A DNA stretch of 13,128 bases from Candidatus Thorarchaeota archaeon (GCA_048882325.1 JBHLRS010000063.1:1-13128), one strand, 5' to 3'. Positions 8,912 to 13,128 are shown, counted from the stretch's first letter. Notes: a model not told the origin generated them from the letters alone. Numbers and translations: made by a program.

Positions 8912-9018
8912 TGGTGGGCCCGAGGGGATTTGAACCCCTGACCGATCCCCTATCTGGACGAAATGTCCAGATATACAGGTTATGAGCCTGCTGCTCTACC
9001 AAGCTGAGCTACGGGCCC
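8912..9018 (-). tRNA. tRNA with CAT anticodon, probably Ile2, with a 30-nt intron at 43/44 (8945-8974)
   Basis: GGGCCCG TA GCTC AGCTTGGTA GAGC A GCAGG CTCATAA CCTGT [intron] CGGTC AGGGG TTCAAAT CCCCT CGGGCCC ACCA. The GGGCCC acceptor stem is typical of archaeal Ile tRNAs rather than Met. Confidence 0.9.
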
Positions 9019-9215: not shown

Positions 9216-9569
9216 ATGATTCTAATGTTCACATCAGATCACTGTGTATGGTGTGGCGTACTCAAGTCTATGTTAGAAGAGGAGAGTGAGGCTCTTGGTA
9301 CCGAACATCAGGTCTATGAGGTCAATGTAGAACGTCAGTACCGTATCGCTGAGGCATATGACATCCTAGTTGTTCCAACACTTGTCGCTGGTTCTTTCAA
9401 GATCTCAGGAGTCCCGGAAGCTAGCGATTTACGTACATTCTTGCTTCAGGCTGTATCTAGAGGATTTCTCAGGTCCGGGAAAAAGAGTGTCAAATCTGTT
9501 CTTCGTGAGGTCCATCAACTTCGAGCATCTGGTTCCTCCAAAGACCCCATTATACGAACAGCATCCTGA
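9216..9569 (+). CDS. Thioredoxin-family protein
   Basis: FTSDHCVWC active-site motif, YEVNVE, and AEAYDILVVPT cis-Pro loop. Confidence 0.85.
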   Translation: MILMFTSDHCVWCGVLKSMLEEESEALGTEHQVYEVNVERQYRIAEAYDILVVPTLVAGSFKISGVPEASDLRTFLLQAVSRGFLRSGKKSVKSVLREVHQLRASGSSKDPIIRTAS

Positions 9570-9628: not shown

Positions 9629-9706
9629 GCCCCGATAGTGTAGCCCGGCCCAGCATCTAGGCCTTTCGAGTCTAAGACCCGGGTTCGAATCCCGGTCGGG
9701 GCACCA
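9629..9706 (+). tRNA. tRNA-Glu: tRNA-Glu(TTC), intronless
   Basis: GCCCCGA/TCGGGGC acceptor stem, TAGGC-CTTTCGA-GTCTA anticodon arm, CCGGG-TTCGAAT-CCCGG T arm, ACCA end; TTAATAA at 9594-9600. Confidence 0.96.
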
Positions 9707-9894
9707 TTTTCTTTATTCCATAACATGAATCATATGATTCTGCGCCTATGAAGCTCTCATCACGTTGTAGGAAATGCAGGATGAAGCTAGAAAGAGAGAG
9801 ATAGTCCCATTTCCAGATTCTTGACAAGATTCTAATACTTGGCAATGCTAATTGTGTTTACCGTGTTTGCTGGAAACATCGGAGGCTATGAGTA

Positions 9895-10782
9895 ATGAGC
9901 GGATTTGGAACCGTGCGGGTTACATGTCCCAATTGTAATGCCACTTATGGGTACAATATAACCGATTCAAAAAACCTGACTGTAACCTGCCAGAACTGTG
10001 GAAGGTCATTAGAGGTTGAGCTTGTGCCTACGTCTCACCAAGGTTTTGCTGGGGATGGTATGAATGTTGCATGGCCAAAAGTTTGTATGGGCTGTGGAAT
10101 GCAGGAGAATCTGACGACCATCGATGAGCCCTTCAACCGTAAGATGGCCATAAGTAGTACGAAACTTGGAATGCAGACGACAACTAGAATAAGTAGTTTC
10201 AGTGGGGTAGCTAGAATCTCCCTATGTCCAAACTGCAAAAAAGAGGGAGATAGAGATGTCACTTTGCAGCGATTACCTGGCACAATTGCGGTTCTTGCTT
10301 CCTTTTTGGTTTTAGTATTTCTCTGGTTGCCATATGGAGGGATTACAATGCTCTATGGCATTCTCTCCGGGCTATGGATTCCAGTCATTTTTCTCGGATT
10401 GGGTCCGCTTAGATCTACCAGCCTTCTCGATTCATTCGGAAGAATAAATATTCAATACAGGACCGGAAATATTGGATTCTCCTTTAGGAATGCGTTATAC
10501 CACTCTGCATTCAGTGGTATGAACTCTCATTTACAATCTTGGACCTGGGAACAAGACACGCCTCAAGGCTATTCTGATACAAAGGTTGGAGTCAATGTCG
10601 ATGCCGGTTTCAGAATCATATCTATTCTAATGTGTCCAGCATTTCTATTCGGTCTTGTACTTGTTAGCGTTGCTGGATTTGTGGGTGTGGGAATGTCAAT
10701 GGGCATTCCCCTTATTATAGGACTAGTCATCATGGTGCTTCTTCAATTAATGGGGAAAATGAGCAGTGACAAGTCTACTTAG
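9895..10782 (+). CDS. Zinc-ribbon-containing membrane protein
   Basis: CPNC/CQNC and CMGC/CPNC pairs, about four hydrophobic helices, GGAGG at 9881-9885. Confidence 0.8.
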   Translation: MSGFGTVRVTCPNCNATYGYNITDSKNLTVTCQNCGRSLEVELVPTSHQGFAGDGMNVAWPKVCMGCGMQENLTTIDEPFNRKMAISSTKLGMQTTTRISSFSGVARISLCPNCKKEGDRDVTLQRLPGTIAVLASFLVLVFLWLPYGGITMLYGILSGLWIPVIFLGLGPLRSTSLLDSFGRINIQYRTGNIGFSFRNALYHSAFSGMNSHLQSWTWEQDTPQGYSDTKVGVNVDAGFRIISILMCPAFLFGLVLVSVAGFVGVGMSMGIPLIIGLVIMVLLQLMGKMSSDKST

Positions 10783-10833
10783 AGATAGAACCAAAGCGCT
10801 ATAGAATGATTAGACATCCTAGTACCGGATAAG

Positions 10834-10865
10834 GACCCGAGTTTGAATCCCGGTCGGGGCACCAT
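10834..10865 (+). repeat. Copy of tRNA-Glu 3' end (attR-like)
   Basis: GACCCGAGTTTGAATCCCGGTCGGGGCACCAT, 30/32 identical to 9676-9707. Confidence 0.9.
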
Positions 10866-10942
10866 CTCCATCTAGAGTTTAGGTCTTTTGGAAAAACATA
10901 AACAGCAACCAATACAACTGTATTGCTAGTTGGAGATACTAG

Positions 10943-11242
10943 ATGAACCAGGTTGATTATGTACTCGTGACTCTCTCCTTGATTGTAGTTTCAGCATCTA
11001 TTTTGTATACTCACTTCTTAGCTATTCAAGTGGTCTGGGCCGTAATGATTTGCAGTCTCTGTGTATATGGTGGATCCATGACATTCGCACTCATCGCTAG
11101 CATAAGAATATTTGAAAAACCGAACCAGATACATTCCCTTAATGTCTTGACTGTCCCAATAATCTACATCATCCGTTCAAAGTTTGCGATTATTGTAAGT
11201 CGAACAAAAAGACTTCAATCTCACAAAAGAGATAATATCTAA
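10943..11242 (+). CDS. Small hydrophobic membrane protein
   Basis: 99-aa ORF with 2-3 hydrophobic stretches and GGAGA upstream; its stop codon lies inside the next tRNA-Glu repeat. Confidence 0.5.
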   Translation: MNQVDYVLVTLSLIVVSASILYTHFLAIQVVWAVMICSLCVYGGSMTFALIASIRIFEKPNQIHSLNVLTVPIIYIIRSKFAIIVSRTKRLQSHKRDNI

Positions 11243-11275
11243 ACCTGGGTTCGAATCCCAATCAGGGCACCATTT
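11238..11275 (+). repeat. Second, more degenerate copy of tRNA-Glu 3' end
   Basis: TCTAA-ACCTGGGTTCGAATCCCAATCAGGGCACCATTT versus 9671-9709: 4 mismatches and 1 gap in 39. Confidence 0.85.
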
Positions 11276-11354
11276 ACTCTAAAATTCTCATTCTATCTGC
11301 TCACATCAAAATTCGCTCTTTGCAATGATCGTACAATAGTTTTTAGAATTTGAA

Positions 11355-12521
11355 TCATCGCAGTAGGCTAATTATATTATTAGCAACTTGACGTTGGAGT
11401 TTTTCACCATTTTCAAACCATTCTTGAAGAATTGCATCAAGCGTGTTTTTCAGATTCGGATCGTCTTCATCCATCATATTGTTTGATTCAATCTTGTCTT
11501 CAATTACCTCTTTGAGTGCCTGTTCTACAATATTCCGAGCCCTTTCTCCTATTTCCACGTGCCCCAACCATTCTGAGAGTATGGCAAGACTATCAAAAGG
11601 AGACGCACCAACAATCTGAGCTATTACATGTTTCGTTATCCAATCGATATCTTTGCTATCAATTAATAGAACCGGATTGAGGAACTGTAAAGCCTTTGCA
11701 GGTTGGAATCTTCCTGGTACTTCAACTCCATGTATTAGCCAATCTACGAGATAGGCATCTCCACTTTGGACCCATTCCTGCGTTAGGATGAACATTTCAT
11801 CAGAATAAGTTCTCCAAGATGAGTAGATGATGAAATCAATGGTGCTTGTCAGAGTTTCATGCTTCTTTAGTAGTAGTTTCTTAAAGACAGAGATTCTCTT
11901 TCTATTGGGTTTGGAGTCATAATAGTAATTGACAAGCAAAATGAAACGACAGACATCTATTGGTAAATCGGTCCAATCTTCAAGACTGAGTTCTGGAAGA
12001 GAAAGGTCCTTTGCCTTTAGTGCATCGGATATAATAGATGCACTGACTTTCATGGCTGGAAAGTGATTTGCACGCGACCAGTTCGCATAAGTAATCTCGA
12101 AGTCCCTGTACTCAGCATTTCGAACGAGTGGAACAAATTCTCTAGTTTCTTCTTCAATCGTCTCCTTGACTTCTTCAGACACACTTGTGAGTTCGTGAAA
12201 GAGGTCAGTGTCATCCTCTACTGCATAGTTTGGTATCTCAATATAATCTGTCTTTGCTAGGATGCTCAAAATCTCTCTTCTAAGCTCAGTATTATTTCTC
12301 TCAGCATCTTCGATATTCCTTTGAAGTATCTTTTCAACACGATCGATATCTTTGACGGTCAATTTCCACCGTTTCTTCTCCTCATCTGAGAGTTGAAGAT
12401 GGACAAATCCCTTTGCTAGTAGAATGTCTAGTTTTCCTTCCCAGTACAAAGATTGGAGAAAGGGAATCCATGTTGGGTGAATTGTCTGAGTCTTGACAAC
12501 GTTGTGGTCTGATTGCGACAT
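11355..12521 (-). CDS. Hypothetical alpha-helical protein, C-terminal HEAT/ARM-like
   Basis: 388-aa ORF with recurring LxEW helices; 10 bp downstream of the wHTH gene. Confidence 0.7.
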   Translation of the reverse strand: MSQSDHNVVKTQTIHPTWIPFLQSLYWEGKLDILLAKGFVHLQLSDEEKKRWKLTVKDIDRVEKILQRNIEDAERNNTELRREILSILAKTDYIEIPNYAVEDDTDLFHELTSVSEEVKETIEEETREFVPLVRNAEYRDFEITYANWSRANHFPAMKVSASIISDALKAKDLSLPELSLEDWTDLPIDVCRFILLVNYYYDSKPNRKRISVFKKLLLKKHETLTSTIDFIIYSSWRTYSDEMFILTQEWVQSGDAYLVDWLIHGVEVPGRFQPAKALQFLNPVLLIDSKDIDWITKHVIAQIVGASPFDSLAILSEWLGHVEIGERARNIVEQALKEVIEDKIESNNMMDEDDPNLKNTLDAILQEWFENGEKLQRQVANNIISLLR

Positions 12522-12531
12522 GGCTCTAAGA

Positions 12532-12939
12532 TTAATCCATATTGAGTGTGATCTTCATGAAGATTGATTTCTTGAGTTTTTTGACAAATGCGTCTTTATC
12601 TTCTTGAGACATTGTAGATTTGATCACACCCTCTCCTTCAAGTTGAGCTATAGTCCTTGTTACTATCTCATCAACTATGTCTTCCACGTCTTGCGTCTTC
12701 TTCATTGTAGTTAGTAAAGCTCTCTGTCCTTTTTCCGTTATAGAAAACACACTGTACCTCCCTTTCTTGGTTCTTCTTACCAGACCCTCTCTCTCAAGAT
12801 CAGACAGAGTAAGGTATAGAGTCCTCTTCGACACCTTCAATTCAGCTTGCAGCTCCCCAAAGTGCGTTTCCTCCTCTTGCATCAGATATGCTAGAATGGG
12901 CATGCTGAATGAACGTCTTTCAAACACTTCGGATGACAT
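12532..12939 (-). CDS. Winged helix-turn-helix transcriptional regulator (HxlR/ArsR/MarR-like)
   Basis: HFGELQAELKVSKRTLYLTLSDLEREGLVRR..FSITEKG. Confidence 0.88.
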   Translation of the reverse strand: MSSEVFERRSFSMPILAYLMQEEETHFGELQAELKVSKRTLYLTLSDLEREGLVRRTKKGRYSVFSITEKGQRALLTTMKKTQDVEDIVDEIVTRTIAQLEGEGVIKSTMSQEDKDAFVKKLKKSIFMKITLNMD

Positions 12940-12972
12940 TGGCTCCCAGCCTAAGGTAAGAGAATGACCCTC

Positions 12973-13128
12973 TTACACTTGAATTGTTTTGATTTCTGAC
13001 ATGAAATACTCCTTATCTTCTTTCTTCTTTATCCTCTCACCAGCCTCTTTACCTAACTGCAGAAACTTGTTCGTTTCTTCCTTGTTCTTTGCGATTGAGT
13101 GGGCTCGTGCCATTGCTTCGTATGCAAA
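12973..13128 (-). CDS. Partial CDS (C-terminal 51 aa), helical hypothetical protein
   Basis: Open frame from the window edge: FAYEAMARAHSIAKNKEETNKFLQLGKEAGERIKEEKEDKEYFMSEIKTIQV*. Confidence 0.7.
   Translation of the reverse strand, partial: FAYEAMARAHSIAKNKEETNKFLQLGKEAGERIKKKEDKEYFMSEIKTIQV

Follow-up and report, generated by a model that had tools for sequence, protein, structure and literature searches.

Single-gene units behind a tRNA-Glu gene of a Thorarchaeota genome, each closed by a partial copy of the tRNA 3' end

Organization of the tRNA-Glu array

The window analyzed here is the whole of contig C63 (13,128 bp) of a "Ca. Thorarchaeota" metagenome-assembled genome (MAG), G000, which has a size of 3.6 Mb, a completeness of 93%, a G+C content of 44%, and numerous intron-bearing tRNA genes. 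It contains a tRNA-Glu(UUC) gene followed by two units in tandem, each with a single open reading frame (ORF) and each closed by a copy of the tRNA 3' part:

9216..9569, plus strand: thioredoxin-like gene (Pfam Thioredoxin_3), the conserved left flank of the hotspot, syntenic in 18 congeneric genomes
9629..9706, plus strand: tRNA-Glu(UUC), intron-less, CCA encoded, anchor of the array (ARAGORN; Rfam RF00005, 57 bits)
9707..10798, plus strand: cassette 1, a T/C-rich trailer and a single ORF (9895-10782, 295 aa)
10799..10864, plus strand: copy 1 of the tRNA 3' part, 66 nt, delimited by alignment with the G009 and G014 alleles
10865..11237, plus strand: cassette 2, a trailer and a single ORF (10943-11242, 99 aa, hydrophobic)
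11238..11272, plus strand: copy 2 of the tRNA 3' part, 35 nt, decayed (30/35), beginning in the 3' strand of the anticodon stem
11273..13128, minus strand: distal accessory block without a bounding tRNA copy, with three genes in the window, the third partial

The last 24 nt of the tRNA-Glu gene recur on the same strand at 10841-10864 (1 mismatch) and 11249-11272 (3 mismatches), and no match to them was obtained in 200 dinucleotide shuffles, so that the repeats are real and far beyond chance. An initial annotation, made from the sequence alone, had described a tRNA-Glu with two 3'-end copies, each closing one gene, and the tRNA calls (ARAGORN and Rfam), the direct copies, and the shuffles bear this out. 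Its repeat counts of 30/32 and 34/39 were close; we recounted 29/32 for copy 1, which turned out to be longer than claimed (66 nt), and 30/35 for copy 2. Divergence does increase with distance from the tRNA, the distal copies being more decayed, and the stop codon of the second ORF (TAA, 11240-11242) does fall within copy 2 (11238-11272), both as annotated. The two units are discrete modules of 1128 bp (first) and 378 bp (second), too small for an integrase, as had also been noted. Copy 1 comprises, in order, the 3' strand of the anticodon stem, a degenerate variable-loop intron of ca. 30 nt, the T arm, the acceptor, and CCA. Since it aligns through the intron with intron-bearing alleles (G009 and G014), it is the displaced 3' part of an allele other than the resident intron-less tRNA. 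Orthologues of copy 2 in G022, L050, and L053 share an identical left boundary.

Regarding the cargo, the 295-aa protein gave weak N-terminal zinc-ribbon matches, has ca. four hydrophobic segments, and has only three relatives among 5.8 billion proteins, while the 99-aa protein is hydrophobic and has no family match in Pfam. The description of the cassettes as carriers of membrane proteins suits these two genes, but the cargo found at the site in relatives is more varied.

The tRNA-Glu site in related genomes

For comparison, we used one genus of 28 species genomes, within a class of 87, and read the tRNA-Glu locus in 19 congeneric genomes and five metagenome contigs. The synteny of thioredoxin and tRNA-Glu was kept in the 19 genomes, with the nadC operon on the right. 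Cassette presence and absence, a check proposed with the initial annotation, varied between these genomes. Ten of the 19 loci were empty, with nadC ending 13-22 nt past the tRNA, and nine were occupied, with cargo that differed between them (SnoaL-like, GNAT, SSB-like OB-fold, and LRR proteins, small membrane proteins, and a TPP/ADH/SCP2 block). Copies of the tRNA, 24-42 nt long, were recognizable in five of the nine occupied loci.

The 99-aa unit was intact in five contexts. It is the second of two units in G000 and the first of two in G022, where it stands directly behind the tRNA and cassette 1 is precisely absent, with the breakpoints inside the repeats. It is the sole unit, ahead of nadC, in L050; in L053, it lies behind a two-intron tRNA and ahead of the TPP block; and in a JGI contig, it lies behind another small gene. 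After the copy in L050 come the ancestral trailer of the tRNA, as found in the empty genomes, and then nadC, which is what would be expected if the copy were the displaced original tRNA end. The 295-aa gene has a homologue in L051 that sits at the same tRNA-Glu hotspot. Within the G017 bin, two alleles were found that are ca. 98% identical in both flanks (L030, corresponding to C113, and L059, corresponding to C43), which makes this bin a mixture of two strains; one allele has an LRR unit of 1,551 bp that ends in a perfect copy of 42 nt, and the other is exactly empty. The absence of the tRNA-proximal unit from G022 agrees with the polarized addition that had been proposed, but polarity is not strict, given that the distal block has no bounding copy and seems to have partly replaced an older block (see below).

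In some relatives (L021 of G010, and L051), thioredoxin and tRNA-Glu are separated by 1.4 kb of additional DNA, which in L051 includes a PEMT-like gene on the reverse strand (891-1523) and points to insertions upstream of the tRNA as well. Small G020 contigs with pieces of tRNA-Glu were considered as cassette variants and rejected, as they contain tRNA genes of other organisms.

Horizontal signature of the cargo

The proportion of synonymous differences (pS) was compared, pairwise, between cargo genes and the flanking core genes:

99-aa unit, G000 versus L050/L053: cargo pS 0.29-0.31, core pS 0.64-0.72
99-aa unit, G022 versus L050/L053: cargo pS 0.35-0.36, core pS about 0.35
295-aa gene, G000 versus L051: cargo pS 0.44, core pS 0.75-0.81 (nadC 0.81)
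SnoaL gene, G008 versus L051: cargo pS 0.57, core pS 0.82
SSB-like gene, G004 versus G010: cargo pS 0.43, core pS 0.67

The four discordant pairs (the 99-aa unit of G000, the 295-aa gene, the SnoaL gene, and the SSB-like gene) depart from the core by ca. 3.5-8 standard errors, according to a rough binomial estimate. Trees of the 99-aa unit were also discordant, with G000 grouping with L050/L053 on the cassette and appearing as an outlier on the core genes. Cargo pS values this far below those of the core suggest that the units move between species and yet land at the same tRNA. The ratio of nonsynonymous to synonymous rates (dN/dS) of the cassette genes, 0.1-0.6, indicates coding constraint, weak in the case of the 99-aa gene. 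Differential loss from one ancestral pan-array was also considered; it is compatible with the orders seen, but unit order does not discriminate here because no pair of units co-occurs in two genomes, and the pS incongruence argues against pure vertical descent.

Arrays at other tRNA genes and intron states

A survey of tRNA ends in G000 found direct downstream copies at tRNA-Glu(UUC), at tRNA-Thr(CGT), and at a tRNA-Leu with a T-loop intron, with no upstream or inverted copies and none for the reversed-sequence control. A tRNA-Val(GAC) at the start of contig C20 has two copies as well. Across the arrays, copy lengths range from 19 to 66 nt. The Thr array consists of two one-gene units encoding membrane proteins of 207 and 300 aa on the reverse strand, the second copy being badly decayed, and most congeners have nothing at this site, which is filled in G013. 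In the Leu array (C20:43385-45137), the tRNA is followed by three paralogous membrane genes (30-41% identity), again on the reverse strand, whose last seven codons and stop (...GAEGEI) are the reverse complement of the tRNA 3'-end repeat; these repeats are identical over 19-22 nt, and G013 precisely lacks the tRNA-proximal unit. Some cargo also exists elsewhere, the 207-aa gene at a non-tRNA locus in four other genomes and the LRR gene away from tRNAs in other genomes. The genome-wide gene capture at tRNA ends that had been suggested is thus supported as far as the recurrence of the design at tRNA-Thr, -Leu, and -Val is concerned; however, the assembly contains no Xer/Int recombinase that could drive a dedicated mechanism (see below).

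Four intron states of tRNA-Glu(UUC) coexist in this one genus: none, a variable-loop intron of ca. 30 nt, a T-loop intron of ca. 29 nt, and both, giving gene lengths of 78, 107-108, and 136-137 nt (the window and L017, L019, L023, L031, L051, and L053). Displaced copies differ from the resident tRNA in intron content, and in G008, L053, and the tRNA-Leu, the resident T-loop intron sits where the displaced intron-less copies begin. An intron-bearing tRNA of the window (8915-9018, minus strand) has, by eye, a CAT (Met) anticodon loop, and its L051 homologue was called Met, while ARAGORN run with introns calls the G000 copy Val(CAC).

Extent of the insert and the distal block

The insert extends beyond the end of the window, which is also the end of the contig. 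A public contig, L046 (GCA_048881725.1, 70 kb), differs from C63 by 1 base over 5.2 kb and bridges the gap. Its gene order is ZIP transporter, intron-bearing tRNA, thioredoxin, tRNA-Glu, 295-aa gene, 99-aa gene, the 388-, 135-, and 164-aa genes on the opposite strand, and nadC with the conserved operon. The entire insert therefore measures 4.0 kb and holds five genes, among which Pfam, PHROGs, and PADLOC detected no recombinase, and this rules out a large integrase-bearing island past the contig end. The genes of the distal block in the window are the following:

11355-12521, minus strand: 388-aa HEAT/ARM-like protein (predicted fold)
12532-12939, minus strand: winged-helix regulator, 135 aa
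12973-13128, minus strand: 164-aa gene, 3' end only, its start lying past the contig end

The 388-aa gene adjoins copy 2 and was considered as a hidden integrase. It was discarded because it has no family matches and a confident predicted fold, the AlphaFold model (pLDDT 87) matching alpha-solenoid structures only, with a HEAT/ARM-like solenoid and a small N-terminal alpha/beta domain. The family is very rare, with 11 representatives among 1.84 billion. No degenerate tRNA copy was found ahead of nadC in L046, where ca. 150 nt beside nadC are homologous to the end of an SCP2-like gene. This remnant suggests that the 388/135/164-aa block replaced part of an older TPP-enzyme/ADH/SCP2 block, still present in G013, G022, G008, and L053. 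Just past the window end (L046 5650-5720), the intergenic stretch upstream of the 164/135/388-aa operon contains four GTATCC boxes, which may be an operator for the winged-helix regulator of this operon.

Search for a recombinase

The initial annotation had called for the Xer/Int recombinases of the genome to be identified, and none was found in G000. Searches with PF00589, PF00239, PF16795, PF01867, PF07282, PF00078, and PF14528 gave no match in this MAG, while control genomes matched each family. The families absent are the tyrosine (with no Xer), serine, and SSV-type recombinases, Cas1, TnpB-type nucleases, reverse transcriptases, and LAGLIDADG_3. PF00589 was also absent from the other genomes with tRNA-Glu copies (G022, G010, G017, and G008). 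Within the genus, 9 of the 28 genomes have PF00589 matches, mostly on small contigs; we evaluated these integrases as possible helpers and discarded them, since ARAGORN detected no tRNA in their loci and only L037 has a motif resembling a tRNA 3' end near the integrase gene. A viral attachment site was equally discarded, the 3' 25-mer of the tRNA-Glu occurring in no IMG/VR contig. Neither the G000 assembly nor IMG/VR yielded a helper with matching attachment (att) site and integrase, of the kind that serves cis-mobilizable elements (CIMEs), although MAGs often miss extrachromosomal elements. As a separate observation, a XerA-like gene is absent from G000, and 19 of the 28 genomes are without any tyrosine recombinase, which is unusual for prokaryotes with circular chromosomes.

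Mechanism and alternatives

We observed directly the anatomy of the array, the precise presence and absence of its units, their horizontal signature, and that known recombinase genes are lacking. With good confidence, we regard the units as separate modules, exchanged horizontally and inserted at the 3' half of the tRNA, and not as debris of decay. The region as a whole may be described, with confidence evenly balanced, as an additive flexible island that is anchored at the tRNA and grew by successive recombination events within the 3' half of this gene, through an enzyme acting in trans, with host homologous recombination slightly favored.

In this model, a module would consist of a T/C-rich trailer, one gene, and a segment resembling the tRNA 3' end, and modules would have entered serially within the 3' half of tRNA-Glu(UUC). 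Each event would give the tRNA a fresh 3' part and push the previous one downstream, where it would decay, copy 1 still retaining its intron. As old 3' ends are pushed downstream, the 99-aa unit would have arrived first and the 295-aa unit later. Serial recombination of this kind would explain why decay increases along the copies, why the last copy is followed by the ancestral trailer, why empty sites are exact, and why the copies do not match the resident tRNA in intron content. Given that modules, island, and assembly contain no recombinase, the enzyme would act in trans. Host homologous recombination on 20-66 nt of tRNA identity could operate by two routes, the integration and excision of putative cassette circles, or allelic exchange with imported DNA of relatives in which the tRNA and its copies would be the sole well-conserved anchors. 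It is slightly favored by the missing recombinases, the copy lengths of 19-66 nt, and the several target tRNAs, and also because, between genomes with synonymously saturated core genes, no anchors are better conserved than the tRNAs.

Several points weigh against this proposal. Homologous recombination leaves unexplained the first joining of a gene to a tRNA 3' segment, although a trans-acting integrase does so too, and archaeal recombination in this lineage would have to be efficient on 20-40 nt. The left boundaries of the copies cluster at the anticodon loop/stem and T loop, as in the att sites of classical integrases, which in tRNA genes reportedly start there (Williams is said to have described this in 2002), and the unit boundaries are exact at CCA, as if made by a site-specific enzyme. 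A search for degenerate tRNA copies in the occupied loci of G004, G009, G013, and G003 found none. Finally, the missing integrase is not proof, because the MAG is 93% complete and mobile elements are frequently unbinned.

An integrase acting in trans and encoded by a virus or plasmid outside the bin ranks just below host recombination and is nearly as likely as the enzyme. In its general form, this alternative, which we hold possible but do not prefer, states that integrase-less cassettes are moved by a tyrosine or SSV-type recombinase of an unbinned virus, plasmid, or larger element, the tRNA 3' part serving as att, in the manner of CIMEs or integron cassettes. The exact CCA boundaries and the start of the identity blocks in the anticodon loop/stem or T loop would follow naturally, and so would the perfect 42-nt repeat and exact empty site of G017 and the ORFs that cross the repeat, like att-spanning genes. 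Between G022 and L050/L053, moreover, the copy to the right of the 99-aa unit is conserved at 32-33/35, against 73% for the unit itself, and some congeners do have PF00589 genes on small contigs. Nevertheless, no tyrosine, serine, or SSV-type recombinase was found in G000 or in the four other genomes with tRNA-Glu copies, the integrase loci of the genus do not adjoin tRNAs, IMG/VR contigs lack the 25-mer, and multiple target tRNAs would require several specificities.

It is improbable that the tRNA gene suffers double-strand breaks, such as a homing-type endonuclease could make, and that their repair from a foreign template copies a new 3' part together with neighboring DNA and leaves the old end behind, in a process akin to homing or to homology-facilitated illegitimate recombination. 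Such repair could create new joints between genes and tRNA ends, the targets are highly conserved genes, as is typical for homing endonucleases, and resident introns are often located exactly where displaced copies start (the T-loop introns of G008, L053, and tRNA-Leu). However, no tRNA-Glu cassette contains an endonuclease gene, PF14528 has no match in G000, ragged ends would be expected and yet the units are trimmed to one gene, and the 207-aa and LRR cargo genes occur away from tRNAs in other genomes.

Even less credible is an origin of the units by deletion from large islands or proviruses that carried an integrase and had once inserted at the tRNA; the initial annotation had named remnants of such islands in relatives as the finding that would overturn it. 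Integrations of this type classically leave partial tRNA copies as scars, the distal copies are decayed, and some occupied loci have no copies. But neither an integrase nor a fragment of one, and no such island, was seen at the site in any relative (19 genomes and 5 metagenome contigs), every unit is an intact gene with minimal flanks, and the 99-aa unit remains intact in its five contexts. In addition, the cargo is ordinary accessory content and not virus or plasmid genes, with dN/dS values in the range already given. A local tandem duplication of a segment containing the tRNA end is very unlikely, for although the three tRNA-Leu units encode paralogues, their copies show no differences and the genes share only 30-41% identity, and we rejected it at tRNA-Glu, where the two units are mutually unrelated and copy 1 derives from a different, intron-bearing allele.

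Relation to known systems

The bacterial "Ca. Methylopumilus" has an additive island at tRNA-Lys with repeated copies of the tRNA's final 20 bp and variable cargo beside this one tRNA, which differs between strains, starts at a size of 330 bp, and contains mostly genes of unknown function (PMC10872708). Similarly, the Thorarchaeota site has strain- or species-variable cargo added at one conserved position with core synteny kept on both sides, and this cargo is horizontal, with pS well below the core in four genes. The differences are the host, an Asgard archaeon, the strictly one gene per repeat unit, copies of up to 66 nt with intron remnants, the assembly without a tyrosine recombinase, and the several tRNAs involved in one genome. 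Prochlorococcus tycheposons lie side by side, separated solely by a partial tRNA copy, with newcomers pushing older ones inward; their islands hold degenerate remnants and extra partial tRNAs, and the elements have their own tyrosine or serine recombinase, often replication genes, and sizes of 4-200 kb (10.1101/2020.12.28.424599). The array shares with them the tandem accretion at a tRNA and the partial copies between units, but its units are 0.4-1.6 kb and have no mobility gene or recombinase of their own. The general layout is already known from bacterial additive islands (PMC10872708; 10.1101/2020.12.28.424599).

Among archaea, in Caldiarchaeum a tRNA fragment and an intron gain were tied to a mobile element, with a 1.8-kb insert that encodes a recombinase and a fragment that is a 5' piece (PMC3293823). 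Common to both cases are a displaced tRNA fragment beside a resident tRNA of different intron content and population heterogeneity at one tRNA locus; here, in contrast, the pieces are 3' and there is no recombinase. The mobile elements described to date in Asgard archaea are large and carry integrases (PMC8813620). Compared with tRNA-integrated elements in general, the units have the flanking direct repeats of the tRNA 3' part but encode no integrase. Casposons differ in that G000 has no PF01867 Cas1 and its repeats are variable (19-66 nt) instead of a fixed target duplication of 14-15 bp.

CIMEs of streptococci are att-flanked, integrase-less elements that accrete in tandem at the 3' end of a conserved gene; they derive from integrative and conjugative elements (ICEs) and use the integrase of a helper ICE. 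The units described here are likewise integrase-less, flanked by repeats, and accreted at a gene 3' end, but no helper was found. Integrons, including archaeal ones, are arrays of mostly one-gene cassettes that are reshuffled among relatives, each closed by a recombination-site repeat, and our arrays resemble them in all three respects. Unlike integrons, however, they have no IntI gene (no PF00589 in G000, G022, G010, G017, or G008, and none in the 4-kb island) and no attI, and their cassettes are closed by directly repeated copies of the 3' part of tRNA-Glu instead of imperfect palindromes of the attC type. Also in contrast to integrons, the cassettes are co-oriented at the tRNA-Glu of G000 and reversed at tRNA-Thr, at tRNA-Leu, and in G010 and G022 units, so that a shared promoter cannot serve all of them.

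No known organisms are more closely related to eukaryotes than the Asgard archaea, whose gene exchange is largely unexplored. At this locus, species appear to exchange single genes, using one fixed tRNA site, in genomes without any known integrase class. If host recombination alone were responsible, this would be a simple and general route of gene gain for organisms without the classical enzymes of mobile elements. As a tentative extension, Thorarchaeota might practice a recombinase-free, integron-like exchange in which tRNA 3' parts are universal docking sequences for one-gene modules moved by the recombination machinery of the cell, with 3'-half swaps driving the rapid gain and loss of non-canonical introns. 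The displaced copies record earlier intron states and offer a testable link between insertion at tRNA genes and the gain and loss of their introns in archaea. How these introns turn over has long been asked, and Randau and Söll are said to have advanced an idea of protection. The Caldiarchaeum model also bears on this link (PMC3293823).

Contig ends near tRNA genes

Contigs C6, C20, C30, C52, C58, C75, and C77 of G000 start or end within ca. 1 kb of a tRNA gene. The frequency of such ends suggests that strain heterogeneity at tRNA-adjacent sites breaks the assembly.

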